From a bacterium (GTDB lineage Bacteria; Patescibacteriota; Microgenomatia; UBA8517): 64,000 nt of DNA. This document shows positions 11,585-41,504 of this stretch, in pieces. Position 1 is the stretch's first letter. The number at the start of each line of letters is the position of its first letter. The stretch spans positions 64,286 through 128,285 of the forward strand of contig CP129472.1 of assembly GCA_030583725.1 (NCBI GenBank). The letters are read 5' to 3'. The position numbers and the translations under genes are program-made. The notes beneath the pieces were generated by a model. That model made no database searches. It saw nothing but the letters and a program-made list of their open reading frames with translations, and was not told the DNA's origin.

Positions 11585-12170
11585 GTGCCTGTTTATAATT
11601 TAGCGCGAACCTATTTTACAACAAATTTCTAATTTGTGCTGAGCAACAAGGGAGGGGTTAAAGGGGAAGGAATTGTTGCGAAGCTCGGGTTTCCTCGCTC
11701 AGCCACTTCGTGGCTTCGCTAACACAACCTGCAAAGCTCGAAGCTTTGCGCTCACCCCACTTTGTGGGGTTCGCTAACCCAATTTAAAGGAAAAGGGGAT
11801 TATTTATAGTTCCACTTCGTGGAACGGTACTGTTACGGTATCCGTAAGGTACTTAATCAATACCGTTGACTAGTCGTATTTTCGACCCTTTTGCCGTTTA
11901 ACGGTCCGTACGGTCGGTTAACGGCCACCGTTGGGGTAAGGCTGAACACAAAAACTAACCCATTTCAGTCGCAATTTGCCCTAAAGGGCAACTTACCCAA
12001 GTGCTAAAAGACAAAAACTGGTGCTTATGCACAGCACTTGGTTAGGAAGCTACAAGCACACACACATTGCTCCTGAAATATTCCCTTTACGGGGAATCCT
12101 GCCCAACACAAAGACACTCCAAAGCTACAGGGGTGTTGGCTTCCGCCATGTGCAGGGCAGGAAGAACAAA
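11585..12170 (-). ncRNA. Structured RNA-like element, copy A: a ~380-nt hairpin-rich module (about 12170->11809) contiguous with a 200-nt inverted-repeat arm (11784->11585). Unclassified large ncRNA candidate.
   Basis: Three diverged copies in the window share an ordered set of hairpins with compensatory changes: a closing helix CUCCUG/CAGGAG; CCUGCCC/GGGCAGG; H1 UGGC-GGAA-GCCA (A) vs AUGGC-GUAA-GCCAU (B) vs UUGGCC-AAA-GGCCAA (C); H2 AUUCCC-loop-GGGAAU; a CCAAGUGCU...AGCACUUGG helix enclosing GUGC-AUAA/GUAA-GCAC; H4 UUGCCC-UUUA-GGGCAA vs UUGCC-UGUUAAG-G(U/C)AA. G-U wobbles are only valid on this strand. Confidence 0.5.
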
Positions 12171-12216
12171 CAAGTGGTGGTTTTGTAAATCCTCTAGTAA
12201 TATAATTCAGTTTAGT

Positions 12217-13362
12217 ATGAACAAAAATGACCAGTGGGACAAACTTCATAAACATTATAAAAATCAAGATTGGATTGAAAAGCCAAATATCTTTGCAGAA
12301 GAAGTATTAGAGTATTTACCAAATAATGGAAAAATACTTTGTTTAGGAGATGGGCAAGGACAAGACGGAAGATTTTTTGCAATTAAGGGATATGAAGTAA
12401 CCTCAGCAGATATTTCAGAAGAGGCACAAAACATAAACAAAGAAAAAATAAAAGTGCAGGGTTTAAAAAACATTTCAGTTGAAAGATTAGATTTAAGAGA
12501 AAGGTTTCCGTATTATGATGCAAGTTTTGATGTTGTGTATGCACATTTGTCTCTACATTATTTTTCTGAAGAAGTAACAAAAAGTATTTTTAAAGAAATC
12601 AAAAGAGTACTAAAAGGTGGTGGAATACTTGCAGTATTTACAAACTCAGTTAATGACCCTGAGTTTAACACGGGGAAAAGAATAGAACAGGAACTATTTG
12701 AGATAGAAGGTATACAAAAAAGATTTTTCTCAAAGTATTCAATGGATTATTTTGCACAAGATTTTCAGGTAGTTCTTTTGGATGACAACGGAAAGACATA
12801 TAAAGATGAAGCAAAAGGAGTGCACAATTTAATTAGATTTGTTGGTAAAAACTATGCTAGAAGAAATAACCAAATTGCATTACCTTTTGTATCAGCAATT
12901 GTAGAAAGAGAAAATAATGGAGAAAAGGAAGTTTTAATTCAAACAAGATGGAGACCAAATGCAGAATGGAATTATCACAACACTATTGAAATTCCTGCAG
13001 GCGTGTTAGATAAAGGGTATGAGAATGTACTTGATGCAGTTAAAAGAGAAGTTAAGGAAGAAACAGGACTTGATGTCACTGAAATTGTAGGTTTAGAAAA
13101 AACTGATATTCACTCTCCAAAAGATGATGCTTCATATGCTTTTAAACCTTTTGCTTGTTCACAACAACTAAAAGCAGGACTTCCTTGGGTTGGATTTTGT
13201 TTTGTTTGTAAAGTAAAAGAGGGAGAAACTAAACAACAAGAAGATGAGACGAGAAATGTTAGATGGGCTAAAAAATCAGAACTCAAACAAATGATTAAAG
13301 AAACTCCAGGTAAATTCTTTACCTTGCATTTAGGAGTTTTAGAAATGTATTTAAAAGATTAA
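12217..13362 (+). CDS. Class I SAM-dependent methyltransferase fused to a NUDIX hydrolase domain
   Basis: Likely start at the ATG at 12217 (MNKNDQW...); the track ORF 12067 start would run through the RNA element. Motif I 'ILCLGDGQGQDGRFFA'; NUDIX box 'GVLDKGYENVLDAVKREVKEETGLDV'. Confidence 0.7.
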   Translation: MNKNDQWDKLHKHYKNQDWIEKPNIFAEEVLEYLPNNGKILCLGDGQGQDGRFFAIKGYEVTSADISEEAQNINKEKIKVQGLKNISVERLDLRERFPYYDASFDVVYAHLSLHYFSEEVTKSIFKEIKRVLKGGGILAVFTNSVNDPEFNTGKRIEQELFEIEGIQKRFFSKYSMDYFAQDFQVVLLDDNGKTYKDEAKGVHNLIRFVGKNYARRNNQIALPFVSAIVERENNGEKEVLIQTRWRPNAEWNYHNTIEIPAGVLDKGYENVLDAVKREVKEETGLDVTEIVGLEKTDIHSPKDDASYAFKPFACSQQLKAGLPWVGFCFVCKVKEGETKQQEDETRNVRWAKKSELKQMIKETPGKFFTLHLGVLEMYLKD

Positions 13363-13364
13363 CT

Positions 13365-13691
13365 ATGAAAAGAATAAAATTTGCTCCAAATTTAGTACAA
13401 CTAGTTCTTGATGGAACAAAAACTTCAACTTGGAGATTGTGGGATGACAAAGATTTACAAACTGGAGATATCGTTGAATTCGTAAATGCAGAAACGCTTG
13501 AAGTATTTTCAAAGGCAGAACTTACAAAAGTAATAGAAAAGCCCTTTAAGGATTTAACAGACGATGAAAAAGAAGGACATGAGAAATATATTAACACAGA
13601 AGAAATGTCTAAAAAATTTGAGGAATATTATCACAAGCCTGTTGATGAAAATACTTTATTTAAAATAGTTCACTTTAGACTCATTAAATAA
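13365..13691 (+). CDS. ASCH (PUA-like) domain protein
   Basis: 108 aa. 'KFAPNLVQLVLDGTKTSTWRLWD...GDIVEF' resembles the ASCH domain. Confidence 0.5.
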   Translation: MKRIKFAPNLVQLVLDGTKTSTWRLWDDKDLQTGDIVEFVNAETLEVFSKAELTKVIEKPFKDLTDDEKEGHEKYINTEEMSKKFEEYYHKPVDENTLFKIVHFRLIK

Positions 13692-13693
13692 CA

Positions 13694-14269
13694 ATGAAAG
13701 AATTTGTAGGTATCTTGGCAGTTATTTTAACTTTTGTAGGTTATGCGCCATACATTTGGGATACTGTAAAAGGTAAAACAAAACCTCATATTTATAGTTG
13801 GTTCACTTGGGCCTTTGTCACTTTTATTATTTTTGCTCTTCAAATTTTTGGCAAAGGTGGTGCTGGTGCATATACAACTTTAGCAACAGCAATTCTTTGT
13901 TTAATAATATTTTTATTGGGCTTAAAAAATGGCAATAAAGATATAACAAGATTTGATACTGTAACTTTTATAATCTCACTTATAGCAACTGCAGTGTGGA
14001 TTTTTGCCAAGCAACCAATAATTTCAACTTTCTTGATTGTTACAATAAATACTTTAGCAAATTTACCAACTATTAGAAAATCTTGGAATGATCCACATTC
14101 TGAAACTTTATTTACATGGCAAATGGGTGCTGTCCGTAATTTTTTAGGAATAATTGCTCTCCAAAATTATTCAATACTAACATGGTTATATCCTGTTACT
14201 AATTTAATAATAAACATCATTGAAAGTTGTATTTTGATAATTAGGAGGAAACAATTAAAAAACATATGA
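13694..14269 (+). CDS. Integral membrane protein (about 6 TM), hypothetical
   Basis: Multiple hydrophobic segments; 'WNDPHSETLFTWQMG'; start codon 3 nt after the upstream stop. Confidence 0.5.
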   Translation: MKEFVGILAVILTFVGYAPYIWDTVKGKTKPHIYSWFTWAFVTFIIFALQIFGKGGAGAYTTLATAILCLIIFLLGLKNGNKDITRFDTVTFIISLIATAVWIFAKQPIISTFLIVTINTLANLPTIRKSWNDPHSETLFTWQMGAVRNFLGIIALQNYSILTWLYPVTNLIINIIESCILIIRRKQLKNI

Positions 14270-14772
14270 TGTATGTTAAATACTACGAAAAAGAAATCCC
14301 AGACAAAGGGATGGGTGTTTTTGCTTCTGAATTTATACCAAAAGGAACATTAATTTGGAAACTTACTGAAACTAAAAAGTTTACAAAAGAAGAATGGGAA
14401 AAGTTACCCCATGAAATTAGAAAAGATGCATATCCAGACAGTGATGGTAATTTTGTGGCTGCAGTTGGTAAAGGAGAATCATGGAATCATAGTTGTGACA
14501 CTAACACTTGGTGGACAGCAGATGATGAACTATCAGCAAGAAGAGATATACAAAAAGATGAAGAGCTAACATATGATTATGCAACTTCAGACATTGATGA
14601 AACTAAAGGGACAGATGTTGCTTACGATTGGGAATGTAAATGTGGTTCAAAAAACTGTAGAAAGATTCTTCATTGGAATGACATTTTAGAACCAGAAATC
14701 TACAACACTTACAAAGGTCATTTACCTAGTTGGGTGGAGAAATTTGTAAAGGAACATAATAAAAATATATGA
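14266..14772 (+). CDS. SET-domain protein (putative protein lysine methyltransferase) with a post-SET Cys cluster
   Basis: 'GMGVFASEFIPKGTLIW', 'NHSCDTN', 'EELTYDY', post-SET 'ECKCGSKNCRK'. Confidence 0.7.
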   Translation: MMYVKYYEKEIPDKGMGVFASEFIPKGTLIWKLTETKKFTKEEWEKLPHEIRKDAYPDSDGNFVAAVGKGESWNHSCDTNTWWTADDELSARRDIQKDEELTYDYATSDIDETKGTDVAYDWECKCGSKNCRKILHWNDILEPEIYNTYKGHLPSWVEKFVKEHNKNI

Positions 14773-15761
14773 ACAACCTAGACGTATTGATTAAAAGAAC
14801 AAATTTAAATATTTCATTTGATGAATTTTTGAAAGATATTGAAGGTAAATTTACATCAATAGGAAAAATTGGAAATTATTCTCCGATCAATGAAGGATAT
14901 GAAGATGCAAATATTATTTTAAATACTTCAACTGGTAAATATGTTTTAAAAATATTTTTAGCTGAAAGAGAATTAGGAAACATAAACAGCTATGTAAAAA
15001 TACTAACTGAATGTAAAAAAGTTGGAGTACCAACTACAGAAATACTATTAGATTTTAATAATGGACTTGGTGTATTTGAAAATGAAGGTATAAAAACATA
15101 CTACATAATTACAAAGTTTTTTGAAGGTAATAACTTTCAGAATACTACTCCAACAATTGAAGATATAAGAAAAGTTACCGAGTGTGTAGCAAAATTAAAC
15201 ACTTTAAATTTCGAAGTTGGAGAGGGTTATGATTCTTGGGGAATTAAAGCATTTCCTGAAGAGTATAAAAATAAAAAAGAAAAATTAACTCCTGAACAAG
15301 ACTCATTAATCAAAGATATTTATGAAGAATATCTGAAGTTAGACATGACTAGTTTTAGTAAGTCAGTTATCCATGGAGACATGCAAAGAAAACATGTTAT
15401 CAAAAATAGTAACAACGAATATTGTATTTTAGATTTTGGTTGTATGGCGTATGACTACAAAGTTATTGAGTTAGCAACCTATCTTGCTTGGTTTTGCATA
15501 CAAAAAGATACTTGGAAAGATAAAGATTTAATCTATAAAGAGGTATTAGATATCTACAATTCAATACACCATCTATCAGAGCAAGAGATATTATCACTTC
15601 CTCTTTTAATTAAAGTTTCTTGTTCTGCATATTATGTGACAACTTCTGTGATGATAAATGAAGGTGATACTAGTGAAGAAACACTAGATTGGCACAATAG
15701 ATCAAAGAAGCTGTTGGAATTATCTAAAATATCGATATCAAACTTATCTACTTTGGGGTGA
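14769..15761 (+). CDS. Protein kinase-like phosphotransferase (APH / homoserine kinase II fold)
   Basis: 'VIHGDMQRKHVIKN' (H-x-D...N catalytic loop) and 'ILDFGCMAY' (DFG-like). Confidence 0.6.
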   Translation: MNNLDVLIKRTNLNISFDEFLKDIEGKFTSIGKIGNYSPINEGYEDANIILNTSTGKYVLKIFLAERELGNINSYVKILTECKKVGVPTTEILLDFNNGLGVFENEGIKTYYIITKFFEGNNFQNTTPTIEDIRKVTECVAKLNTLNFEVGEGYDSWGIKAFPEEYKNKKEKLTPEQDSLIKDIYEEYLKLDMTSFSKSVIHGDMQRKHVIKNSNNEYCILDFGCMAYDYKVIELATYLAWFCIQKDTWKDKDLIYKEVLDIYNSIHHLSEQEILSLPLLIKVSCSAYYVTTSVMINEGDTSEETLDWHNRSKKLLELSKISISNLSTLG

Positions 15762-16721
15762 ATGAATAAAAGATATATTTTTGAAGTTAATATTAAAGTT
15801 GAGCAAAGTAACTTCTGTATTGAGGATTCAACTATTAACGATTGGAGATTTTTTTGGACGAACGATAACGTTTGTGCCATCATATCTGCGACTAAATTAT
15901 TTAGCGGAAATGGACAAATGACTGATGGATTTGAATATTTAAATACGCCAGATAAATTAGGTTTGTTGATTGATTGTATAAGTTTTATTACAGACCTACC
16001 GGTTTCCTGTAAAGTAGACTTCCGACTTTTTCGTGTAGATGATAATAACAAAATTAACATTTTAGACTTGACAACACCATTTACTAAGCTATTGCAACAA
16101 GCCAGAAGTAATAAATTATTACAACATGGTAGTAGCGTCGACGAGTGGCCTATTAGGGTTAGTCCTGGAATTTCGCACAACTTTAGAAGCAAAGATATTA
16201 GTTTCATTCGACATCTATTTGTGCTAATTTCAAAAATACGAATAAAAAACACTTCAATTAAACTGTTAAATTATTGGAGAAAAGGATTTGACCTCGACGT
16301 GCTAAATTATTGGGATGAGAGCTTCTTGGTATTTTTTAAGATTCTTGAGTATTTCGACAAAAGATATCAACCTAATAATAATTTGTATATTGATAATAAA
16401 ATAATGAAAGCAAAATCAGAGATTTCCAAAAAAGCTTTAAGGATAGCTGGTGGCGCAGAATCTACTAAGCCAAGTAAGTATCTAATAAAACTGATTTCTG
16501 ATTTCATCGAAATAAGAAATAATTCAGACATTGCACACATGCGTATAAAACCGCTACCTAAAGATAGGAATGGTGCCTTTTATTTTACATCCTATTTAAA
16601 TATTTGGGACACACATGATGATATCAAAGAATTAGCAAGGCTCTTTGTTTATAAACAACTTGGTATTAAAGGTTTACAATTAAGGAATGATGGTGGTTTG
16701 TTTAAGTTAACAACGATTTAA
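15762..16721 (+). CDS. Hypothetical protein (319 aa)
   Basis: ORF in the same operon (start 1 nt after the upstream stop); no recognised motif. Confidence 0.45.
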   Translation: MNKRYIFEVNIKVEQSNFCIEDSTINDWRFFWTNDNVCAIISATKLFSGNGQMTDGFEYLNTPDKLGLLIDCISFITDLPVSCKVDFRLFRVDDNNKINILDLTTPFTKLLQQARSNKLLQHGSSVDEWPIRVSPGISHNFRSKDISFIRHLFVLISKIRIKNTSIKLLNYWRKGFDLDVLNYWDESFLVFFKILEYFDKRYQPNNNLYIDNKIMKAKSEISKKALRIAGGAESTKPSKYLIKLISDFIEIRNNSDIAHMRIKPLPKDRNGAFYFTSYLNIWDTHDDIKELARLFVYKQLGIKGLQLRNDGGLFKLTTI

Positions 16722-16723
16722 TT

Positions 16724-17362
16724 ATGAAAACACTTAATGTCTTCACAAATGAAAAAGGAGAATTTGGAAATCCTGTAGGAATAATTGTTGATTCCGAAAA
16801 CAAGATAGATGATAAAAAACGTCAGCAAATGGCAATTAATAGTGGTTTTAGTGAAATTGTGTTCATAAACAATCTTGAAACAAAAGATGTAAGTATCTTT
16901 TCTCCAACAAGACAAATTCCATTTGCTGGCCATGCTTTAGTTGGAACAAGTTACTTTTTTAACAATGTTTTAAATTTACCTACAATTGAAATTATAAGCA
17001 TGGGTAAGGTTATTAAATCATGGCAAGAAAACAAATTAACTTTTGTAGAAGCTGATCTTTCAATTTTACCTAATTGGAATATAAAAGAATATAAAACTCC
17101 AGAGGAAATAGAACAAATTACAATCCAAGAAGCTTCAATTTTAGAACACACTCTAGTTTGGTGTTGGATAGATAAAGAGAAAGGATTGGTTAGGGCTAGA
17201 ACATTTGCTTCTGACTGGGATATCCCAGAGGATGAAGCAAATGGATCAGGAGCAATGAAACTTGCAAGTTTAATTAATAGAAATCTAATCATTCATCATG
17301 GAAAAGGATCAGTTATTCATTCAACTCCAAGTTCAGTTGGTGGGTTAGTAAAACTAACCTAG
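16724..17362 (+). CDS. PhzF/YddE-family isomerase-like protein (short, 212 aa)
   Basis: 'EFGNPVGIIVD...NSGFSEIVFI...SPTRQIPFAGHALVGTSYF' matches the PhzF family N-terminal half. The 3' end abuts/overlaps the inverted-repeat arm. Confidence 0.55.
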   Translation: MKTLNVFTNEKGEFGNPVGIIVDSENKIDDKKRQQMAINSGFSEIVFINNLETKDVSIFSPTRQIPFAGHALVGTSYFFNNVLNLPTIEIISMGKVIKSWQENKLTFVEADLSILPNWNIKEYKTPEEIEQITIQEASILEHTLVWCWIDKEKGLVRARTFASDWDIPEDEANGSGAMKLASLINRNLIIHHGKGSVIHSTPSSVGGLVKLT

Positions 17363-17384
17363 TTTTGTAATAACAACAAAACAC

Positions 17385-17584
17385 AATTGGGTTAGCGAAC
17401 CCCACAAAGTGGGGTGAGCGCAAAGCTTCGAGCTTTGCAGGTTGTGTTAGCGAAGCCACGAAGTGGCTGAGCGAGGAAACCCGAGCTTCGCAACAATTCC
17501 TTCCCCTTTAACCCCTCCCTTGTTGCTCAGCACAAATTAGAAATTTGTTGTAAAATAGGTTCGCGCTAAATTATAAACAGGCAC
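17385..17584. repeat. 200-bp inverted-repeat arm A' (exact reverse complement of 11585..11784)
   Basis: Read by eye as an exact 200/200 reverse-complement match to the arm adjacent to ncRNA copy A. Internal hairpins GCAACAA..UUGUUGC, GCCAC-UUCG-UGGC, GCAAAGCU-CGA-AGCUUUGC, CCCCAC-UUU-GUGGGG. Confidence 0.85.
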
Positions 17585-17647
17585 CCAACCCCGACCTGTC
17601 GGGGTCGAGCGAAGCGAAGACCACGACATTTGCCCATCCCCTCGGAC
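17582..17647. repeat. ~65-bp inverted repeat IR65a (left arm, upstream of recombinase 1); partner at 19179..19244
   Basis: 'cacccaaccccgacctgtcggggtcgagcgaagcgaagaccacgacatttgcccatcccctcggac' is the reverse complement of 19179..19244; contains the palindrome CCCCGACCTGTCGGGG. Confidence 0.8.
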
Positions 17648-17693
17648 GAAAACAACACAAGACAAAACAAAAAAGTTGATATTATTTGATGCC

Positions 17694-17723
17694 TTGATAT
17701 GGATTATTTACGGGCGTATAAAT
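17694..17723 (+). promoter_or_regulatory. Sigma70-like promoter for recombinase 1: TTGATA - 17 nt - TATAAAT, start codon ~7 nt downstream (leaderless)
   Basis: TTGATA at 17694-17699, 17-nt spacer, TATAAAT at 17717-17723. The same 30-nt sequence 'ttgata(c/t)ggattatttacgggcgtataaat' is conserved upstream of all three recombinase genes. Confidence 0.65.
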
Positions 17724-17729
17724 GATATT

Positions 17730-19355
17730 GTGAAGCACAATATTGTAAATAATCCATTACATCCAAAATTCTTCCTCTACGCAAGAAAGTCTACAGATGT
17801 AGAAGATAAACAAGTGCAGTCTATTGAGGGTCAGCTTCAGGAGTTACATGAACTTGCTAAGAGAGAAAATTTAATCATTGTAGATGAATTCATTGAAAAA
17901 CAATCTGCCAAAACTCCCGGAAGGTCAATTTTTAATAAAATGTTGGATTCTATTGAACAAGGTCATGCAAATGGAATTCTCTCTTGGCATCCTGATAGAC
18001 TAGCAAGGAACTCTGTAGACGGCGGAAGAATTATTTACCTATTAGACACAGGTAAATTGTCTGCCCTCAAATTTAATACCTTTTGGTTTGAGTCCACTCC
18101 ACAAGGAAAGTTTATGCTGTCAATTGCGTTTTCTCAATCTAAATATTATGTAGATAGTTTAAGTGAAAATACTCGTCGTGGACTCAGGCAAAAAGCTAGA
18201 AATGGATATTCTCCAACTGTTGCTCCGCTTGGTTATATAAATGATATTAGAAGTAAAACTGTTGTTCTTAATAGAAAATTAAGTCCAATTGTTCAGGAAG
18301 CTTTTGAAAAATATAGTGTTGGGAATATCCTAATGAAAGATGTGTCTAGCTTTTTGGCAAAGAATGGGATTCTTAACCCAAATGGTAAGAAATTTGATTT
18401 GAATAGAATAAAAAGACTTTTAACCAATCCATATTACTGTGGATATTTTGTATATGGTGGAGAAGTGTATGAGGGCAGACACGATCCAATAATTTCAAAG
18501 AAACTTTTTGACAAAGTCCAAGATGTAATGAGTGTTAGAAATCACTCTTGGAAAAATGCAAAAGTAGAAAAGATTTCTAAACCCTTTGATGGACTTCTAA
18601 GGTGTGGTGAGTGTGGCATGATGATTTCTCCTGATTTTAAAGTTAAACATTATAAAAATGGTACTTGTGGCTACTTTAATTACTATAGATGTACAAAAAA
18701 GAATAGAAGTATAAAGTGCCGACAGTCTCATATTAGAGTGAGTGGTTTAGAAAGCCAACTCATCACACTTGTCAAAAAATATTCTTTGAAAAATGATTGG
18801 GCTATAAAAATGAACGAGAAACTTGATGAAGAACAAAAGGATATAGCCCAATCAATCCTTCCTGTTGTTGCAGAAAAAAGGAAAGAAATTGAAAGCATTA
18901 ACACTAAACTCCAACTTCTTCTTGATACTTATTTAGATCAGACAATTGATAAAGAAATGTATAAGGTTAAGAAGTTGGAGCTTTTTTCCAAAAGGAAAAC
19001 TTTTGAAGAACAAATTCTTTCCTTGCAACAACATAAAGGAAGTTGGATCGAACCTATGCGAAATTGGATATCTGAGGCTAGGGAAGTAGATCAAATAATA
19101 TCAACTAACAACAAAGAACAATTAAAGGTCCTCGCGAAGAAAATCTTCGGCTCGAACCTTTACCTAGAGAACAAAACAGTCCGAGGGGATGGGCAAATGT
19201 CGTGGTCTTCGCTTCGCTCGACCCCGACAGGTCGGGGTTGGGTGGACCTAGGGAGAATCGAACTCCCGTTACATGACTGCCAGCCACGTGTCCTACCATT
19301 GAACGACAGGCCCCAATACTTTGAGATTCCTCTGTGTGGACCCTGCAGGACTTGA
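17730..19355 (+). CDS. Large serine recombinase 1 (resolvase catalytic domain + recombinase domain + zinc ribbon + coiled coil)
   Basis: 'FFLYARKSTDVEDKQVQSIEGQ' (catalytic Ser), 'WHPDRLARN', zinc ribbon 'LRCGECGMMISP...YRCTKKNRSIKC'. Probable GTG start at 17730; the track's N-terminal extension covers the promoter. No stop until 19355: the C-terminus ('GDGQMSWSSLRSTPTGRGW') is encoded by IR65a' and the frame reads on antisense through tRNA-Ala. Confidence 0.85.
   Translation: MKHNIVNNPLHPKFFLYARKSTDVEDKQVQSIEGQLQELHELAKRENLIIVDEFIEKQSAKTPGRSIFNKMLDSIEQGHANGILSWHPDRLARNSVDGGRIIYLLDTGKLSALKFNTFWFESTPQGKFMLSIAFSQSKYYVDSLSENTRRGLRQKARNGYSPTVAPLGYINDIRSKTVVLNRKLSPIVQEAFEKYSVGNILMKDVSSFLAKNGILNPNGKKFDLNRIKRLLTNPYYCGYFVYGGEVYEGRHDPIISKKLFDKVQDVMSVRNHSWKNAKVEKISKPFDGLLRCGECGMMISPDFKVKHYKNGTCGYFNYYRCTKKNRSIKCRQSHIRVSGLESQLITLVKKYSLKNDWAIKMNEKLDEEQKDIAQSILPVVAEKRKEIESINTKLQLLLDTYLDQTIDKEMYKVKKLELFSKRKTFEEQILSLQQHKGSWIEPMRNWISEAREVDQIISTNNKEQLKVLAKKIFGSNLYLENKTVRGDGQMSWSSLRSTPTGRGWVDLGRIELPLHDCQPRVLPLNDRPQYFEIPLCGPCRT
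19179..19244. repeat. IR65a' (right arm); encodes the recombinase 1 C-terminus and abuts the tRNA-Ala 3' end
   Basis: Reverse complement of 17582..17647. Confidence 0.8.
19243..19313 (-). tRNA. tRNA-Ala (anticodon GGC)
   Basis: Manual cloverleaf: acceptor GGGCCUG/UAGGUCC with the G3:U70 Ala identity pair, anticodon loop CUGGCAG, T-arm GGGAG-UUCGAUU-CUCCC, discriminator A. Convergent with, and overlapped by, the recombinase 1 ORF. Confidence 0.8.
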
Positions 19356-29641: not shown

Positions 29642-31345
29642 CTAAAAAGTTATAGTCAAGTTTGATATACTACCAATAGTTCTTGGAAACAAAAAAAATG
29701 CCGAGATGCTGAAATTGGTAAGAACCTTGGCCAATTTCAACACACAATAAGCCGAGATGCTGAAATTGGTAGACAGGCACGTCTCAGAAGCGTGTGTCGA
29801 AAGACATGAGAGTTCAAGTCTCTCTCTCGGCACCATTTTGCGACTTGGCGGGTCGGCACGAAGTGCCGACCAAGCGTTTAGCCCATCCCCTTGGAGTTTT
29901 TTGTTCTGGAGTTGCAGGTTCGAGCCGAAGATTTTTGAGGCGAGGACCTTAATTTGTTCTTTATCGTTAGTTGATATTATTTGATCTACTTCACTAGCTT
30001 CATTTATCCATTTTTTCATGGGTTCGAGCCAATTGCCTTGTGATCTTTTAAGAGAAAGGATTTGTTCCTCGATTGTTTTCTTTTTGGAAACTAATTCCAA
30101 TTTTTTATTTTGAAAAGTTTCTATATCAATTACTTGATCAAGATATGAGTCAAGAAGAAGTTTTAATTTTAAATTAATAGTTTCTAAATCCTTTCTCTTG
30201 TCATTTATGACCTCAAGGCAAGACTTGGCTATATCTGATTCTTCTTGTTTTAGTTTAGATAACATCTGATTAGCCCAAGTCTTTTTCAAAGAGTATTTTT
30301 TGATGAGTGTGGTGAGTTGTGGTTCAAGATAAATATCTCTTAGATACTTTTGACTACACTTTATATATTTATTCTTTTTAGTACAGTGATAGTAGGTATA
30401 TCTAACATTTCTATTAGTACCTTTATAATATTTATCTTGAACTTCGGCTGATATCATCATGCCACACTCACCACACCTAATAAGTCCTAAATATGGTTTT
30501 ATAATTCTATTAACTTTGGCTTCTTTCCACTGCCGATTTCTCCTATTTAGGACTTCCTGTACTTCATCAAAAAGTTTCTTTGAAATAATTGGCTCGTGTC
30601 TGCCCTCATACACATCTCCACCGTATGTAAAAACACCGTAGTAAAATGTCTTTTTAAGTAGATATCTTATTTTATCCTCATCAATTCTATTACCTTGTGG
30701 ATTTAAGACCTTTTGTGTTTCCAAAAAGCTAGAAATATCTTTCATTGATTTATCTCCCTTTGAGTACATTTCAAAAGCTTGGGTAATAACAGGCGCAATT
30801 CTTTTATTAACAATAATAGTTTTATTTCGAGTATCATTAATATACCCAAGCGGTGCTTTGCAAGGAAAATTACCATTTCTAGCTTTTTGCCTTAACCCAC
30901 GACGAGTATTTTCTGACAAAGAATCTACATAATATTTGGATTGAGAGAACGAAATTGACAACATGAACTTACCTTGAGAAGTGGGTTCAAACCAAAAGGT
31001 GTTAAATTTGAGGGCAGACAATTTACCTGTGTCCAAGAGGTAAATAATTTTTCCTCCATCAACGGAGTTTCTTGCCAAACGATCCGGATGCCATGAAATT
31101 ATCCCAGAAGCACGACCTTTTTCAATATTTTCTATCATTTTATTAAAAACTGGTCGTCCAGGAATTTTGGCAGATTGTTTCTCTATTAATTCTTCGACTA
31201 TTTCCAGACCTTCTCGTTTGGCAAGCAAACGAAGTTCGTCGAGTTGACCATCAATTGATTGAACTTGCATATCCTCAACATCTGTAGATTTTCTTGCGTA
31301 GAGGAAAAATTTTCTAGAATTAGGATTATTTACATTAGTAGCCAT
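29642..31345 (-). CDS. Large serine recombinase 2
   Basis: Paralog of recombinases 1 and 3, sharing the catalytic Ser motif 'FFLYARKSTDVEDMQ' and zinc ribbon 'IRCGECGMMIS'. Likely start MATNVNNP at 31345. The ORF has no stop before reading antisense through IR65b and tRNA-Leu, so the true 3' end is uncertain. Confidence 0.85.
   Translation of the reverse strand: MATNVNNPNSRKFFLYARKSTDVEDMQVQSIDGQLDELRLLAKREGLEIVEELIEKQSAKIPGRPVFNKMIENIEKGRASGIISWHPDRLARNSVDGGKIIYLLDTGKLSALKFNTFWFEPTSQGKFMLSISFSQSKYYVDSLSENTRRGLRQKARNGNFPCKAPLGYINDTRNKTIIVNKRIAPVITQAFEMYSKGDKSMKDISSFLETQKVLNPQGNRIDEDKIRYLLKKTFYYGVFTYGGDVYEGRHEPIISKKLFDEVQEVLNRRNRQWKEAKVNRIIKPYLGLIRCGECGMMISAEVQDKYYKGTNRNVRYTYYHCTKKNKYIKCSQKYLRDIYLEPQLTTLIKKYSLKKTWANQMLSKLKQEESDIAKSCLEVINDKRKDLETINLKLKLLLDSYLDQVIDIETFQNKKLELVSKKKTIEEQILSLKRSQGNWLEPMKKWINEASEVDQIISTNDKEQIKVLASKIFGSNLQLQNKKLQGDGLNAWSALRADPPSRKMVPRERLELSCLSTHASETCLSTNFSISAYCVLKLAKVLTNFSISAFFLFPRTIGSISNLTITF
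29700..29720 (+). repeat. 21-nt duplicate of the tRNA-Leu(CAG) 5' end, 30 nt upstream of the full gene, followed by 'ttggccaatttc'
   Basis: 'gccgagatgctgaaattggta' occurs at 29700 and again at 29751 (start of the tRNA). Confidence 0.7.
29751..29832 (+). tRNA. tRNA-Leu (anticodon CAG)
   Basis: Manual fold: GCCGAGA acceptor, anticodon arm CACGU-CUCAGAA-GCGUG, long variable arm, T-arm GAGAG-UUCAAGU-CUCUC, discriminator A. Confidence 0.8.
29830..29896. repeat. IR65b (abuts the tRNA-Leu 3' end); partner 31435..31503
   Basis: 'gcaccattttgcgacttggcgggtcggcacgaagtgccgaccaagcgtttagcccatcccc' is the reverse complement of the partner; contains the perfect hairpin GGTCGGCAC-GAAG-TGCCGACC. Confidence 0.8.
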
Positions 31346-31354
31346 GCTACTATC

Positions 31355-31384
31355 ATTTATACGCCCGTAAATAATCCGTATCAA
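31355..31384 (-). promoter_or_regulatory. Conserved sigma70-like leaderless promoter of recombinase 2
   Basis: Reverse complement reads ttgata-cggattatttacgggcg-tataaat; ATG 10 nt downstream. Confidence 0.65.
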
Positions 31385-31434
31385 GATATCAAATAATATC
31401 AACTTGTTGTTATGCTTTTTGTGTGGAGTTTTCA

Positions 31435-31503
31435 GTCCGAGGGGATGGGCTAAACGCTTGGTCGGCACTTCGTGCCGACCCGCCAAGTCGCAAAATGGTG
31501 CAT
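31435..31503. repeat. IR65b' (upstream of the recombinase 2 promoter)
   Basis: Reverse complement of 29830..29896. Confidence 0.8.
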
Positions 31504-31698
31504 ATCTATAGTTTAGTCAGAACCTATTTTACCACACATTTTTAATTCTGTAGCGGAGCAACAAGGGAGGGGTTAAAGGGGAAGGAATTGTTGCGGAGCG
31601 TGTTTCCTTGCTCGCCGCTTCGCGGCTCGCAAACCCATATCATGTTTGCGCTCCAGGCCTCCACTCGCTTCGCTCGTTTCGGCCTTCCGCTTACCCAC
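31499..31698. repeat. ~200-bp inverted-repeat arm B (far end). Partner 39274..39480; followed by a ~90-nt inner segment (31699..31790) shared with arm C.
   Basis: Reverse complement of the arm 3' of ncRNA copy B. Hairpins GCAACAA...UUGUUGC and GCCGC-UUC-GCGGC (covaries with GCCAC-UUCG-UGGC in arm A and GCUCCGC-UUCG-GCGGAGC in arm C). Confidence 0.85.
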
Positions 31699-31786
31699 TG
31701 TGTTTTGTTGTTATGCCTAGCCCACGCTTACTGATAACATAGAATACTCATTTGAACTTATGAATACTTATTTTATACAATTGAAG

Positions 31787-32641
31787 CTAGGCAGTGTTTT
31801 TGTTTTCTTTTTTCTTCGCCTGACTATCTGCTTTTTGAAAACGATCCGTTGTCATAAAACTATCTCGAAATTTTAGATTTGTGGCCATAAGTCTTGCATG
31901 TTGATTTTCGTAATCATTAATTAATACTAACTTCTTAAAATCTCGATTAACTTCGTAAATCAAGTTAAGACAAGCAAGACAAGTATTAGAAAGTTGCCAC
32001 AAAGCAGCTTTAACTAGGTATTCATCTTCAATATCAAAAAATAGTGTTTGTGTTTCTGGTGGATTGTTTTTATCAAAAATATGTTTAGTATTTTTGAATG
32101 TATTAACTAAATTAGAATGTGAGTTGAATTGTATTTGCTTCTTTATCTTCTTTAAATCAATAGACCTATCTGAATAATTATCATCTAACCACTTATATCT
32201 TTTTGATTTTAAGTCATTGGACGGATCTAAGATACCAAATTCATCAGTTGCTGCAAAATCTTTATAATTAGGATTAGCAATTGAATAACCAAGGTTGCAT
32301 GAGGCTTCCATGAACAATCGTAAGTTTAAAGATGCCTGCACTGAATGCAAACGGACAATTGAAAACATTGACAAAAGATAAAAATTTCGCATCTCGGTGT
32401 GAAATCTAAGTAACAAATCAGTTCCTTGATCAAAATTTCCAAGATAACCATCAAAAAAATTACTAACTAGCATATATACATCATTTACATGTTTATACAA
32501 ATCTCCATATTTTTGCTGAGATTTTAATAATAATGAATTTTCTTCGATGACAATATCTAATAAAGTGTTTGAATTTAGTATCATTAATTTGATTTTACCA
32601 TTGATTTGACATATTTCACTTTCGACATATAATACGTACAA
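31787..32641 (-). CDS. Hypothetical protein (284 aa)
   Basis: First cargo gene inside element B; no motif recognised. Confidence 0.45.
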   Translation of the reverse strand: MYVLYVESEICQINGKIKLMILNSNTLLDIVIEENSLLLKSQQKYGDLYKHVNDVYMLVSNFFDGYLGNFDQGTDLLLRFHTEMRNFYLLSMFSIVRLHSVQASLNLRLFMEASCNLGYSIANPNYKDFAATDEFGILDPSNDLKSKRYKWLDDNYSDRSIDLKKIKKQIQFNSHSNLVNTFKNTKHIFDKNNPPETQTLFFDIEDEYLVKAALWQLSNTCLACLNLIYEVNRDFKKLVLINDYENQHARLMATNLKFRDSFMTTDRFQKADSQAKKKENKNTA

Positions 32642-33045
32642 AGATGACAGATCGAATATTTAGACTTACTGATCCGGATTTAATTTCTTGTGATACACCA
32701 TGCGAAGAAAAGTTTGCAACCCTAACAGATTCAAGTAAAAGCTTACCCACGGAATATAAAGGTATCCAAACAAAACGTTGTGTTGCCAACAATGCTGCTT
32801 TACGAGGTCAACATTTTGCTGAACAACAACACCCTGATCCAAAAAAGTGCAGGGTCTGCACAATTTATACAGCAACACCAACAACAGTTGACAGTGCTTC
32901 TACTGAAGCGTAAAATCATCCTTATGAATATGAATTTTACTACCGCTACAATAATTCTCTCTAGGAGAGGTTAATTTGTAGTGGGAGGAACTTAAAAAGT
33001 TCAGATAACTCTCACTTACCTGAGAGTTTTTTTATATCTAAAAAT

Positions 33046-33558
33046 ATGGAACAACTAAAATCAAGATTAGCAACTACAAACGATGAGAAATATGCCTCTC
33101 AAATATCTGGTTGGACAAAAGAATCTGGAACAATGCTTCCTAAAACTGTTGATGATTTAATGGCTCTGTTTAGTAATAATGACTCTGTATTGGTTTTTGA
33201 CGATGAAGGAGCTTTGGTCAGTCATGCAGCAATAACTTATACATATTCGGACGGTAGTGTAGAAATTGGGTGCGTAATCACAGATCGTGAAAAAAGAAAA
33301 AATGGTGCAGCCACCCAAGCGGTTAAGCAAATTTTAGTTTTGGCGGACGAAAAATACCCAGGTAACAAGAAATTTGCATTAGCTAATGAACATAGTTCTG
33401 CATTGTTTGAAAAAATTGGTGCCATAAAAATACCAACAACAGAACTTTCAGCAGAAGTTTGGATACCATGCAAAACATGCCCTAGAATACCAAAACAGAA
33501 ATCTGGACAACCATTTGTGTGTTGTGATACACCTTATGACTTAACCAATATCAGATAG
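33046..33558 (+). CDS. GNAT-family N-acetyltransferase (tentative)
   Basis: 'VEIGCVITDREKRKNGAATQAVKQ' resembles the acetyl-CoA binding motif A. Confidence 0.5.
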   Translation: MEQLKSRLATTNDEKYASQISGWTKESGTMLPKTVDDLMALFSNNDSVLVFDDEGALVSHAAITYTYSDGSVEIGCVITDREKRKNGAATQAVKQILVLADEKYPGNKKFALANEHSSALFEKIGAIKIPTTELSAEVWIPCKTCPRIPKQKSGQPFVCCDTPYDLTNIR

Positions 33559-34623
33559 AAAAGCTGATACTATTTCTGTAAGTCTCTCTAAATTTTTAAT
33601 AGATATTTTTTCATTTGTAGTATGTGGATCCTCTACTCCATCACTAAGATTTACAACTTGAATCCCAGCATTTACTAATGGGTTTGCATCACTTATTCCT
33701 GTTGGTTTATCAAATGAGGTCTTGATACCAAGTTTATTATAAATAGAAACTATTTTTAATATAAACGGATCATTTTCTTTGTGATTATAACCACTGCAAT
33801 ATCCATCAAGTTTTAGTTCTATTTCGACATCTGAATATTTAGATTTAATATCAACAACATGCTTATTTAATTCTTCGATATGAACATCAAATTTCTTTTT
33901 ATTTAAACTTCTAATTTCACCTTGAACAATCGTTTTATTCGGAACTGTATTAATACCTATACCTGAGTTAACTACACCAATGTTAATTGTTGTTTCTCCG
34001 TTATCAAATCTACCAATTTTTATTTTATCCATAAATTTAATTGCAGGTGATAATGAGTTAATACCTTCCTCTGGTCGAGATGAATGCGCAGACTTACCTA
34101 TAAAAGTTACCTTAAAATTGTAAATATAAGGTGAAGACAAAACAATTCTTCCAAATGGTCTAGCGTAATCAATAGTCAAGCCAACTTTCGATTTAATCCA
34201 TTCAAATGGAAAAAATTCTAAACCACCTCCAGTTTCTTCTTTGACTGAAAATAATAATTCGATATTTGGTAGTTTGTTATTTTTTTCTTTATATTCTTCT
34301 ATAGCACAAATTATTGCAGATATTGATGCTTTATTATCAGCTCCCAAAATAGTTTTTCCATCAGATTGAATATAGTCATTTTGAATAATTGGATTAATGC
34401 TATTCCCTGGTTCTACAGTGTCCATATGAGAACTTAATAACAATTCGGGACTGTCGTTACCTTTTTCTATGGCTAAAATTGATCCTAATTTATCTTGCTT
34501 CCACTTAAATCCTACTTTTTTTAGCCAATTCTTAATATATATAGCCATGTCCTGTTCATTTCCAGAAACGCTATCTATTTTTACAATAGTTGTAAATATA
34601 TCGGCTATTTTCATATTATTCAT
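33541..34623 (-). CDS. M20/M42 metallopeptidase (PepT / ArgE-DapE-like)
   Basis: 'LLLSSHMDTVEPG', metal-binding His/Asp/Glu pattern; 360 aa. Confidence 0.7.
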   Translation of the reverse strand: MNNMKIADIFTTIVKIDSVSGNEQDMAIYIKNWLKKVGFKWKQDKLGSILAIEKGNDSPELLLSSHMDTVEPGNSINPIIQNDYIQSDGKTILGADNKASISAIICAIEEYKEKNNKLPNIELLFSVKEETGGGLEFFPFEWIKSKVGLTIDYARPFGRIVLSSPYIYNFKVTFIGKSAHSSRPEEGINSLSPAIKFMDKIKIGRFDNGETTINIGVVNSGIGINTVPNKTIVQGEIRSLNKKKFDVHIEELNKHVVDIKSKYSDVEIELKLDGYCSGYNHKENDPFILKIVSIYNKLGIKTSFDKPTGISDANPLVNAGIQVVNLSDGVEDPHTTNEKISIKNLERLTEIVSAFLSDIG

Positions 34624-34778
34624 ATCTTACTCTAACCTTGGTCTACTTGACAATACGCATGAGTAGATATATATTACAGGGTAATTTCAATATGAACATT
34701 AGATTAATTAACAGAAGGAGACAAATTTGTCTCTAGTAAACCTACCCGCTTATATAGCGGGTTTTTTAATATAAAAAT

Positions 34779-36002
34779 ATGCAACACGATATACAAAACG
34801 AAGAACGAGAAGCTGAAAATAGAGCACTCAAAGTAAACGAGGAGACATCAAAACTAACTAAAGTTTTAATGTGGGGTGCTCCTGGTTCTGAAACAGTTCT
34901 TGGACAATTACTCCCTAGTAAAATAAGTTGTTTTGAAACCCAGTTTGATGTGCTTGGAGCAAGAACAGAGTTTGAAACAGCCAAATCAATACTTACTTCC
35001 CAAGGAGTAGAAGTTATTCAAGTTAAAGACTTGATGGCTAAAATGATAGACGAGCAAGGATTGAAGCCTGAGGGGAACTTTGAAGGATTACGAAAAAATA
35101 TTGAGACGCGAGCATTAGGATATTCCGAAAAATATAAAGGTCAGGGAATTTCTGATGTTGAAGAAGTACTAAGCTGGTTAGATGAAGTATTAGAAGCTGA
35201 TGCAAAAAAATACGGGGTTGAAACCGCTACTTTAATGAATGAGGTTTTGTCATTAAAAAGTGAATTACCACTCTCAAATGTTTTGTATGCTAGAGATCAA
35301 TCAAATTTATTAGGTAGGACTTTTGTATGGTCATCTATGAGACATCAGATTAGACAACCAGAAGTGCATCTTTTCAAAACAGTCCTTAATCATAGTGGAA
35401 TTTTAGAATCAAAAGGTCTACAACAAGTACAAATTAACGGTAATGGAAGATTTGAGGGTGGAGATGGAATTGCAAACGCAGGGATTTTTTATGTTGGTGT
35501 CGGAGGTAGATCAAACACAGAAGGTGTGCTGCAGGCTTCTGAATCAATTATCTCGAAGGGTGGAAGAGTAATGATATCAATTGACAGTGATCGTGATTCA
35601 GGAGCTAATGAGATGGATGCAATGCATCTTGATACATTCTGGATGCCTGTTGGCATTAATCAAATTGTGGCCTGCAGAGATGAAATTAACAGAAGACAAA
35701 TTTTAGAAGTTGTAGGTAATCCTCTTTCGGGATTAAGACTTGAAGATCGGGGTAGTTTTATTGATCATCTTAATGAAAGAAATGTAGAACTTATTCCACT
35801 CACAAAAGAAGAACAGTTAGCCTACGCACCAAATTTCTTGAATCTAGGAAACAAAACAGTAGTCTTATCACTAGCTGATGGTAACAACTTAACAGGTGAA
35901 CTTGAGAAACGTGGTTTTACTGTGTTTAATGCAAATCTCAAAAATATTACTAAGGGTTATGGTGGGTTACATTGCATGACCGCCGCTATTAAAAGGGAGT
36001 AA
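34779..36002 (+). CDS. Amidinotransferase-superfamily enzyme, arginine deiminase-like
   Basis: 407 aa; C-terminal nucleophile region 'GYGGLHCMTAAI' as in ADI 'GGGxRCMS'. Confidence 0.55.
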   Translation: MQHDIQNEEREAENRALKVNEETSKLTKVLMWGAPGSETVLGQLLPSKISCFETQFDVLGARTEFETAKSILTSQGVEVIQVKDLMAKMIDEQGLKPEGNFEGLRKNIETRALGYSEKYKGQGISDVEEVLSWLDEVLEADAKKYGVETATLMNEVLSLKSELPLSNVLYARDQSNLLGRTFVWSSMRHQIRQPEVHLFKTVLNHSGILESKGLQQVQINGNGRFEGGDGIANAGIFYVGVGGRSNTEGVLQASESIISKGGRVMISIDSDRDSGANEMDAMHLDTFWMPVGINQIVACRDEINRRQILEVVGNPLSGLRLEDRGSFIDHLNERNVELIPLTKEEQLAYAPNFLNLGNKTVVLSLADGNNLTGELEKRGFTVFNANLKNITKGYGGLHCMTAAIKRE

Positions 36003-36003
36003 A

Positions 36004-37941: not shown

Positions 37942-37970
37942 TTCTCTGGAAAATAAACTATAATACTTTT

Positions 37971-38870
37971 ATGCAATCATGGATTTTGTATTCCTTACTT
38001 GGTACAGCAATTTATGTTATTGTGATTTTTGTTGACAAATATAATTTAACTCAACAAATTAAGGATTATCGGGGTATGGCTATGTACAGCGCCATTGTTG
38101 GATTAATTTCAGGGAGTGTTCTCTGGTTAATGACTGGAAGACCAATACTTGGGTTTCAAGATGGATTATTAGTTATGATAACTGGAATGCTTTCGATATT
38201 TTCAGCTTCGATATATTTCTATGTAATACAAAAGGAGGATGGAAGTAAAGTTCTTTTTCTACTCCAATTAGTTCCTGTATTTGTTTTAATTTTATCACTG
38301 TTATTCTTGGATGAAGTCATCACTATAAAGAAGCTGTTAGGTTTTGCATTAATTTTAATTCCATCTCTTTTGGCATCATCGGATGGCAATAAGCTGAAAC
38401 TATCAATAGATAAAAACACAATACTATTAATGGCCTCCACATTTTTAACTGCTGTCAGTGCTGTAATATTTAAGTTTGTTGTTGATGCAGGAAGTTTTTC
38501 AAAAGTTGTTGCCTATGAAAGCTGGGGTTGGGCAATCGGCGGTTTAATTTTATTTACTGTTTTTCCCTCCGTAAGAAAGGCTTTTTTCACAACTACCAAA
38601 TCCTTAAAGAAAATTGCATTGGCAATTGTATTTGGAAATGAGATTTTGTTTTTAGGCAGTAAGCTTCTTTTATTTCTTGCAATTTCATTGGGATCAGTCT
38701 ATTTAGTTAATGTGATAACTGGAACACAAGTACTGTTCGGAGCTTTATTTGGAGTAGTACTTACATTACTTGTACCCAAGATATTTCATGAGGATATCAG
38801 TAAGAATAGTATTAAAAATAAATTAATATTGGGAGTTATCACTCTTGTTGGATTAGGGTTAATTTATTAA
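37971..38870 (+). CDS. DMT/EamA-family membrane transporter
   Basis: 10 predicted TM segments in two 5-TM halves. Confidence 0.6.
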   Translation: MQSWILYSLLGTAIYVIVIFVDKYNLTQQIKDYRGMAMYSAIVGLISGSVLWLMTGRPILGFQDGLLVMITGMLSIFSASIYFYVIQKEDGSKVLFLLQLVPVFVLILSLLFLDEVITIKKLLGFALILIPSLLASSDGNKLKLSIDKNTILLMASTFLTAVSAVIFKFVVDAGSFSKVVAYESWGWAIGGLILFTVFPSVRKAFFTTTKSLKKIALAIVFGNEILFLGSKLLLFLAISLGSVYLVNVITGTQVLFGALFGVVLTLLVPKIFHEDISKNSIKNKLILGVITLVGLGLIY

Positions 38871-38896
38871 TCATAACTGTATACATTCTTAGTAGT

Positions 38897-39480
38897 CTCC
38901 TTTCTCCTGCCCATGCACATGGCGTAAGCCATCACCCCTGTAAGCTTTGGCGTGTTTTGTGTTGGGCAGAATTCCCGACAGGGAATATTTCAGGAGCAAT
39001 GCCTGTTGTGCCCGTAGCTTCCTAACCAAGTGCTGTGCGTAAGCACCTGTTCTGTTTTCAGCACTTGGATAGTTGCCTGTTAAGGTAAATTGCGACTGAA
39101 ATGTCATATTTTGTCCCAACGGCTAGCCGTTAACCGTCCAGCGGACGGTAACATGGACAAAAGGCCGTATTTACGGCCAGTTAACGGAGTCGATTGATCT
39201 TCTTACGGTATACCGTTAACTACCGTCAGGAGCCGTTAGGCCTCCTGACTATAAATAACCCCTTTTCCTTAAAGTGGGTAAGCGGAAGGCCGAAACGAGC
39301 GAAGCGAGTGGAGGCCTGGAGCGCAAACATGATATGGGTTTGCGAGCCGCGAAGCGGCGAGCAAGGAAACACGCTCCGCAACAATTCCTTCCCCTTTAAC
39401 CCCTCCCTTGTTGCTCCGCTACAGAATTAAAAATGTGTGGTAAAATAGGTTCTGACTAAACTATAGATATGCACCTTGAC
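38897..39480 (+). ncRNA. Structured RNA-like element, copy B (hairpin-rich module 38897..~39273 + inverted-repeat arm 39274..39480)
   Basis: Same hairpin order as copy A with compensatory changes: AUGGC-GUAA-GCCAU; AUUCCC-GACA-GGGAAU; GUGC-GUAA-GCAC; UUGCC-UGUUAAG-GUAA (G-U wobble, valid only on the + strand); ACGG-UAUA-CCGU; GUCAGGAG-loop-CUCCUGAC; then the conserved junction 'uauaaauaaccccuuuuccuuaaag'. Confidence 0.5.
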
Positions 39481-41496: not shown

Positions 41497-41504
41497 GCAA
41501 TATT

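Follow-up and report, generated by a model that had tools for sequence, protein, structure and literature searches.

Why should three recombinase genes of one bacterium each lie between inverted repeats and then read, without meeting a stop codon, into the antisense strand of a transfer RNA gene? The question is raised by a stretch of 64,000 nucleotides (hereafter the window; positions 64,286 to 128,285 of contig CP129472.1, assembly GCA_030583725.1) from a member of the Patescibacteriota. A preliminary description, made from the sequence alone, had offered two answers: an insertion sequence (IS)-like unit with terminal inverted repeats of ~65 bp, or an arrangement of attachment (att) sites in which the crossover falls inside the C-terminal coding region of the integrase gene, int. 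The second is the one that fits. The three cassettes appear to be the attL, or integrase, ends of mobile islands of 7.7-17.4 kb, accounting together for 34.7 kb of the 64 kb, and the crossover is placed 14 codons ahead of the true int stop. Very probably, they are related elements integrated by conservative serine-recombinase recombination at tRNA 3' ends, with the crossover inside int.

The inverted repeats previously seen around the three genes were recovered as arms of 66-70 nt, 98-100% identical within each pair, and their pairing greatly exceeds chance. A repeat search over the whole window added a second inverted pair per cassette, 100% identical and 200-218 nt long, enclosing 5.6, 7.6 and 15.3 kb of genes in elements 1, 2 and 3, respectively. 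We call the small arm Y, the larger one X, and their counterpart copies Y' and X' (Table 1; a slash marks a junction). Each upstream Y arm is directly bordered by one X arm, the two overlapping by just 3-6 nt. Outward from the tRNA the layout is tRNA/Y - int (antisense) - Y'/X' - cargo - X/host, and in each window element a spare complete attP (X/Y), in inverted orientation, lies directly upstream of the int promoter. The arms once taken for terminal inverted repeats are the P' arms (Y) common to attL and the spare attP, and the X repeats the P arms that the spare attP has in common with attR. The mobile unit extends instead from the tRNA junction to the distal X/host junction.

Comparison of the three sites argues for an attP by attB exchange at a short core, yielding hybrid attL and attR. 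In element 1, attP reads ..AACAGG-CAC-CCAACCCC.. (..aacagg-CAC-ccaacccc), attL reads tRNA..TAGGTC-CAC-CCAACCCC.. (..taggtc-CAC-ccaacccc) and attR reads ..AACAGG-CAC-ACAGAGAG.. (..aacagg-CAC-acagagag). The cores fall at tRNA positions ~72-75. Deletion of elements 2 and 3 in silico rebuilds a tRNA cluster in the order Leu, Leu, Val, Phe, Gly, and the deduced empty sites look sensible. The palindrome CCCCGACCTGTCGGGG was also considered as crossover site and rejected: attR is devoid of any Y sequence, and the exchange must therefore fall at the X/Y boundary.

Seventeen such site triads were assembled, three from the window and 14 from other loci. Their attP, attL and attR have in common a core of only 2-7 nt, the cargo ranges from 0.6 to 15 kb, and the mobile unit is bounded by unrelated sequences, namely the outer edges of Y' (at the tRNA) and of the distal X, which are not inverted repeats of each other. 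The cleanest triad, L003-B, comes from a 3.1-kb element: its core is exactly GA and the deduced attB restores an intact coding sequence, which together constitute a serine recombinase signature. In the same locus (L003:5660-10270) this element, at 6024-9138, is inserted at a non-tRNA site, through its 2-bp GA core, in the integrase gene of another element, indicating that the elements are able to disrupt each other. The nested copy had travelled as a whole (X' cargo X)(Y int Y') block.

The choice of tRNA genes may be rooted in the X arm. Its end carries the conserved AAAATAGGTTCGAGC, the complement of which codes for the peptide ARTYF, and in 24 of 26 loci the distance to the crossover is exactly 4 bp greater for the GTTCG of X than for that of the tRNA T-loop. 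A comparable shift is known for the LI integrase, whose zinc-ribbon motif stands 5 bp nearer the centre in attB than in attP (PMC3783163), the role of GTTCG as a zinc-ribbon contact being an assumption. By this analogy, X would represent the P half-site, and the T-arm plus acceptor strand of the tRNA the B half-site; the T-loop-like motif common to X and tRNAs would then explain the spread of the family over many tRNAs.

The int proteins are ordinary large serine recombinases (LSRs); the arrangement of their genes is not ordinary. Pfam recognizes Resolvase (PF00239, E=3e-22), Recombinase (PF07508) and Zn_ribbon_recom (PF13408) domains, and the YARKS(T)D motif with the catalytic serine is invariant in alignments of 7 and 47 homologues. 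The A118 integrase is the closest solved relative, and its C-terminal domains align to int. In the AlphaFold2 model of a homologue, coiled-coil helices span residues 370-417 and 423-449, with a predicted local distance difference test score (pLDDT) of ~90, completing the domain set first proposed. A promoter-like motif, TTGATA-N17-TATAAA(T), precedes the start codon by 7-10 nt in all three copies, the first of which uses GTG, as had been noticed; the copies are not identical, contrary to what had been stated, one spacer base differing in copy 1. In int1 the motif would yield a leaderless mRNA. A strict consensus promoter scan did not list it, because its rule demands a T at position 6 of the -10 hexamer.

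The 3' ends of the genes are where integration leaves its mark. The conserved C-terminal peptide is coded by the arm, as proposed (WSSLRSTPTGRGW, WSALRADPPSRKM and WSALRADPTGRGW in the three copies), and all three open reading frames (ORFs) then cross the tRNA in antisense without a stop. The read-through tails measure 36, 62 and 58 codons in int1, int2 and int3, rather than the 40-110 first reported, the first in-frame stops being found at 19353-19355, 29642-29644 and 39817-39819. Far from being a conserved C-terminal extension, a possibility raised earlier, these tails are arbitrary tRNA-antisense sequence, with a recurrent G-I/F-E-P derived from the T-arm.

If the ORF is instead followed from Y' into X', exactly 14 further codons and a stop are found in most loci where both arms are readable. 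In element 1 the missing tail, PVYNLARTYFTTNF, and its stop are coded on the minus strand of 17540-17584, inside X. The tail follows the motif xΦYxxARTYFxxNx plus stop, conserved across homologous loci (other examples are HIYSLVRTYFTTHF and PLYQIARTYFIKNF, each followed by a stop). Among 24 distinct tails, arginine occupies position 7 in 23, using codons CGA, CGG, CGC and AGA; threonine at position 8 uses three codons; and the stop is codon 15 in all 24, as TAA, TGA or TAG. Synonymous codons and varied stops at fixed positions point to conservation at the protein level. The model, built for an intact homologue, predicts, with moderate confidence (pLDDT ~63-69), that the tail is a terminal helix following a flexible or disordered linker. 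As judged from these reading frames, the recombination site appears to lie inside the int ORF, and integration to disrupt the gene, which is what defines a 'suicidal' integrase.

The arrangement is widespread. Scanning of GTDB genomes and JGI metagenomes brought up 145 related loci, almost without exception from Patescibacteria, or Candidate Phyla Radiation (CPR), and ten further LSR loci were fetched later; 150 loci were classified. We refer to int fused to the antisense of a convergent tRNA (split int) as state A, to an intact int with the tRNA on the promoter side as state B, and to an intact int with X/Y on both sides as state F. State A accounts for 103 of the 150 loci and involves 19 tRNA types, Gly and Leu being the commonest; ten loci feature a native tail with no tRNA in reach, and one a native tail with a tRNA on the promoter side. 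All flanks of sufficient length contain repeats of 55-170 nt, 89-100% identical, and the spare inverted attP is a conserved component of the elements. At E<=1e-30, at least 7944 homologues are present in the protein database; in the 120 best, the tail is tRNA antisense in 93 and native in 8. Several genomes contain four to six different copies each, and in one locus (L035) two elements lie in tandem at a single tRNA. The smallest element (L146) carries only a 145-aa membrane ORF. A scan of IMG/VR with the LSR returned no relatives, and nothing thus points to a phage. When an empty site or alternative junctions were sought for the organism of the window, exact-protein look-ups retrieved only Logan contigs that end at the X and Y repeats.

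A few loci depart from state A. In L155, a MEGAHIT k141 contig (protein P0037), Y comes directly after a same-strand tRNA-Val, and next come the int promoter, an intact int with native tail and Y'/X', an order that corresponds to state B. L010 holds the same element in state A: the Y-int-Y' block has the same orientation and is 95.5% identical, while the tRNA and X flanks are both reversed. The element is conserved at 95-99% between the two loci versus only 76-81% for the host flanks, and the hosts must consequently differ. L109 is a second case of state B. In L156, on contig ERZ27253369:k141_697151, and in L157 the X end, the core and Y are repeated on both sides of an intact int (state F). 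The two attP copies of L157 (1911-2017 / 3542-3648) are 90% identical, with differences clustered around the core; two elements may have formed a hybrid here, or the two sites may differ in target.

A query limited to the C-terminal part of the protein retrieved only fragments from the protein database, and led to a further arrangement: in L151-L154 the int 3' end is followed by Y'/X', a reverse-complemented distal module (see below) and cargo. Such a junction is the one expected in an excised molecule, and would represent its fossil. Here, as a separate observation, a stand-alone 159-aa ORF (L151:1193-1672, same in L152-L154), preceded by TTGTCC-N16-TATAAT and identical in four samples, corresponds to the LSR coiled coil and C-terminal part with native tail; this may be fossil sequence, or else a fragment since domesticated, for instance as an inhibitor of incoming relatives.

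A scheme may be proposed for how these states arise. The old attB would consist of the tRNA T-arm and acceptor strand, the core and downstream host sequence, and the attP of the element of X/Y. In its free form the element is probably circular, with two attP sites in inverted orientation splitting the circle; states B and F are those to be expected if two such sites flank int. State A would be the outcome of integration through the attP within int, which would fuse int to antisense tRNA and displace its 14 final codons and stop, together with the remainder of X, to attR, the far end of the element. Such an event would be partly 'suicidal', since it removes the C-terminal helix, and would result in a stable state; the roughly 100:1 excess of state A over state B suggests that A is the stable end state. 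An intact int would be kept if the other attP is used, or restored if the segment between the Y arms is inverted later, either by RecA or by the recombinase itself. Y would also supply hairpins right after the tRNA. In the three window elements, L018 and L003-A, the conserved distal module beside the resolved X arm always adjoins attR, a position that agrees with direct integration via the attP within int and in no way suggests frequent flipping.

Several observations weigh against this account, or parts of it. No recombination directionality factor was identified, and no small gene is conserved across cargos. Cargo 2 contains an arginyl-tRNA synthetase, an odd passenger for a dispensable element; were it the sole argS of the genome, element 2 could not be lost. 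The arm identity of 98-100% within the window elements is not accounted for by conservative recombination alone, and needs gene conversion, recent formation or homogenization in the free form; the attP copies of L157, only 90% alike, indicate that perfect identity is not required. States A and B occur in different hosts, where in situ inversion is indistinguishable from integration via the other attP. The L156 and L157 contigs end inside repeats, which makes the 'circle' a topological inference. Finally, most state-A int genes are still intact ORFs.

It is conceivable, and we put it forward only tentatively, that these elements are to bacteria and serine recombinases what the 'suicidal' integrases are to archaea, with an antidote built in: a circle with two attP sites, locked by truncation of int on integration and resurrected by inversion via the spare attP. 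If true, this would give control of directionality without a separate directionality factor.

A reading compatible with integration through the attP inside int, though a rather unlikely one, is that of a switch invertible in situ, in which inversion between the Y arms toggles int between truncated (off) and intact (on), the spare attP serving this purpose. Both orientations of one element relative to the tRNA are indeed found (L010 versus L155; L109), a flip brings back the conserved 14-codon tail and its stop, and arms 98-100% identical within the window elements, versus 66-82% between them, are what would be expected of recombining arms. The two orientations come, however, from different hosts, as the divergence of their flanks indicates, and no assembly contains both; state A is ~100 times commoner than state B; the distal module adjoins attR wherever resolved, in line with direct integration; and canonical LSRs do not recombine attP with attL (PMC3783163).

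The internal X/Y might also be an old inverted duplication of the int 3' end, kept alike by gene conversion, which never served as a recombination site and acts only in cis, as an autoregulation operator, an insulator or terminator between cargo and int, or a pairing partner for the mRNA 3' end. Its location ~45 nt ahead of the -35 box, the same in the three window copies, its richness in hairpins and the variation of arm identity between loci, from 89% to 100%, agree with this. So does an inner repeat of 17 nt, found in copies 1 and 2 and in L038, L043, L044 and L056, which, given its asymmetric gaps, looks like the remnant of a longer, ancient inverted duplication, since decayed. We nevertheless regard a purely regulatory role as improbable: the whole site is kept through the core, including the coding tail and stop; an X arm of 200-440 nt is not needed for regulation alone; and state B and the double-attP contigs are what a working upstream attP would produce.

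Very little speaks for an IS-like unit of ~1.66 kb that moves autonomously, the LSR recognizing its 66-nt terminal inverted repeats as transposon ends, beyond the fact that perfect inverted repeats do surround a single recombinase gene and its promoter. No free-standing Y-int-Y' unit, the bare cassette that the preliminary description suggested looking for, exists among the 150 loci, the cassette being invariably accompanied by a tRNA at one end and by X and cargo at the other; in L003, the cargo between the X arms was carried along when the nested copy moved; and exchange takes place at the outer edge of one arm only, the other running seamlessly into an X that is repeated at the far end of the element. 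Assembly or sequencing artefacts (stops lost by error, or a mis-join across repeats) can be practically dismissed: many contigs do break at the arms, and repeats longer than the k-mer are ambiguous for short-read assemblers, but more than 100 loci, taken from numerous studies and put together by various assemblers, repeat the architecture and its reading-frame logic, the arms of L155 (64 nt) are below the k of 141 used in that assembly, and the stop is displaced rather than lost, sitting exactly 14 codons into X.

Integration through an attP inside int sets these elements apart from the large serine integrases of phages and mobile elements, with which they otherwise have much in common. A118/LI, phiC31, Bxb1 and SPbeta SprA feature the same set of resolvase domain, recombinase domain, zinc ribbon and coiled coil; their conservative attP by attB exchange likewise occurs at a very short core (2 bp in our cleanest case), and the P-type half-site motif is likewise farther from the centre than the B-type one. 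In contrast, the elements described here target the 3' ends of many different tRNA genes, have their attP within the integrase coding region and in two inverted copies, show no evident directionality factor gene, form small islands of 2.5-17 kb without phage or conjugation genes, and seem to be largely confined to CPR/Patescibacteria.

For an attP lying within the gene, the closest analogues appear to be the archaeal 'suicidal' tyrosine integrases. Those of the SSV type, described as exclusive to archaea (PMC8371274), also carry the attachment site in their own gene, which is split on integration, and the integrated state is thereby stabilized. The present elements, with a serine recombinase and bacterial hosts, are analogues and not members of that group. 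Moreover, SSV integration leaves two inactive gene halves, while here just a 14-residue C-terminal helix is lost, and the spare inverted attP retains an intact copy of the missing 3' end. An attachment site within the integrase's own gene, altered by integration, is also a feature of intP/intX of the myxophage Mx8.

Topologically, the nearest relative appears to be the yeast 2-micron plasmid (Flp/FRT), which, like the free form proposed here, has two unique segments split by long, near-identical inverted repeats, each holding a site of the recombinase encoded in one segment. Flp is, however, a tyrosine recombinase acting on identical sites, and the CPR elements integrate into the chromosome; the double-attP topology to which the comparison applies is seen in the contigs L156 and L157. 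The Hin, Gin, Cin and Min invertons and shufflon-like systems also have inverted repeats around a segment, the flip of which changes the 3' end of a reading frame, but they rely on small serine invertases and an enhancer, flip a target gene and not, as here, that of the recombinase, and occur in both orientations within one population, while here the two have been seen only in different hosts. IS607 and Tn4451/Tn5397 (TnpX/TndX) are small elements with a serine recombinase, a presumed circular intermediate and dinucleotide exchange, as here; unlike here, the IS607 recombinase is small with an N-terminal DNA-binding domain, TnpX and TndX choose their targets loosely, and none of the three has an attP in the gene, inverted spare sites or tRNA targeting. 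In the literature on serine recombinases in Patescibacteria, CPR or Saccharibacteria, and on attP within integrase genes, no description of the family was found. The combination of attP in the gene, a second inverted attP and tRNA 3' ends as targets is not described for serine integrases.

In CPR/Patescibacteria, where several copies may be present in one ~1-Mb genome, the elements are very abundant, and they may be among the principal means by which organisms with few recognized mobile elements acquire genes. Their architecture explains a recurrent annotation artefact, namely integrase ORFs running into tRNA genes and contig breaks at these loci. The family offers many orthogonal integrases, with attB and attP readable straight from genomes, and suggests a possible mechanism of directionality needing no accessory factor.

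Table 1. Coordinates of the three elements and their parts in the window; assignments to attachment sites are those proposed in the text
Feature	Position	Strand	Remarks
Element 1	11585..19244	-	7.66 kb, at 3' end of tRNA-Ala(GGC); putative attR core 11585-11587, attL core 19242-19244 (CAC, minus strand)
X arms, element 1	11585-11784 / 17385-17584
Distal X arm, element 1	11585..11784	-	Putative P half of attR; 100% identical to 17385-17584
Cargo 1	11785..17384	+	Methyltransferase-NUDIX, ASCH, SET, APH, PhzF-like and two unknowns (Pfam)
Palindrome array, cargo 1	~11810-11954		TATAAAT box 11802-11808
Structured module, cargo 1	11955-12172	-	Conserved
Internal intact attP (X/Y), element 1	17385..17647	+	Putative; inverted relative to attL/attR; X 17385-17584, core CAC 17582-17584, Y 17582-17647
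Y arms, element 1	17582-17647 / 19179-19244		66 nt, complementarity 100%
Inner 17-nt inverted repeat	17674..17690		Partner 19090-19106
Promoter-like TTGATA-N17-TATAAAT	17694..17723	+	7 nt ahead of int1 GTG
int1, split state	17730..19355	+	GTG start 17730; conserved protein to 19244; then 36 tRNA-antisense codons, TGA 19353-19355
Y' arm, element 1	19179..19244	+	Putative P' half of attL; also last 22 conserved codons of int1 as present (..VRGDGQMSWSSLRSTPTGRGWV)
tRNA-Ala(GGC)	19241..19313	-	ARAGORN, Rfam; T-arm and acceptor 3' strand, putative B-type half-site of former attB
tRNA-Val(GAC)	19336-19410		Upstream of tRNA-Ala(GGC), same operon
Element 2	29830..39475	+	9.65 kb, at tRNA-Leu(CAG) 29751-29835; core GCACC (putative attL 29830-34, attR 39471-75)
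Element 2 parts			Y 29830-29895; putative internal attP 31436-31699; cargo 31700-39272; module 38896-39112 (+); distal X 39273-39475
Y arms, element 2	29830-29895 / 31436-31501		66 nt, complementarity 98%
X arms, element 2	31497-31699 / 39273-39475
int2	ATG 31345, stop 29642	-	Element 2
Element 3	39992..57386	+	17.4 kb, at tRNA-Gly(GCC) 39925-39997; core CGCTCC
Element 3 parts			Y 39992-40061; putative internal attP 41578-41859; cargo 41860-57168; module 56740-56962 (+); distal X 57169-57386
Y arms, element 3	39992-40061 / 41578-41647		70 nt, complementarity 100%
X arms, element 3	41642-41859 / 57169-57386
int3	41496 to 39817	-	Element 3

The cargos differ in content. In cargo 2, the region 34779-37941 encodes an arginine deiminase and the arginyl-tRNA synthetase mentioned above, which is full-length. 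Cargo 3 holds a tRNA-Ser of its own (47229-47314) and a 1074-aa helicase-PLD-zinc-ribbon protein.

On its attR-proximal side, each cargo carries a conserved, structured non-coding module of ~200 nt (Table 1), also found at L018:1958-2178, L003:3796-4002 and L036:20572-20795. The modules are 84-87% identical between elements, versus only 57-66% for the integrases. RNAalifold predicts a fold of -51 kcal/mol with 50 pairs, nine of which feature compensatory changes, and every GNRA and GAA loop is on the strand that reads toward attR. An Rfam search detected only tRNAs in the whole window at the gathering threshold, and only chance-level hits in the distal non-coding region at the E-value threshold. 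The module is a candidate new non-coding RNA or single-strand DNA element, which may be part of the same machinery as the integrase. A guide of the bridge-RNA type was looked for in X and in the module by eye, with no systematic search, and no target-specific complementarity was noticed; the conserved loops are the same despite different tRNA targets.

Between the module and X an array of short palindromes is found (11802-11954 on the minus strand, 39113-39272 and 56963-57168 on the plus strand), the arms of which co-vary, being ACGG..CCGT in elements 1 and 2 and GCGG..CCGC in element 3. A hairpin closes the array, together with a box resembling TATAAAT (TACAAAT in element 3) that is placed ~17 nt before X. 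This box, which is not conserved in L151, could be an outward promoter for downstream host genes, such as the tRNA cluster that follows element 2.

The X arms are themselves structured. Given their GCGAAGC-type hairpins and one-stranded TAGCGA motifs, a single-strand fold-back (panhandle) or sso-like function might be imagined for the repeats. A hairpin with a conserved C-rich loop, TTCCTTCCCCTTTAACCCCTCCC, resembling the anti-Shine-Dalgarno sequence, is found at 17485-17531, 11638-11684, 31553-31599 and 39373-39419, and in the X arms of element 3. Its stem shows compensatory changes, being GCAACAA/TTGTTGC in elements 1 and 2 and GCATTCTCCAA/TTGGAGAATGC in element 3. X also contains several GAA-loop hairpins of the GCGAAGC type and TAGCGA motifs, all on one strand.

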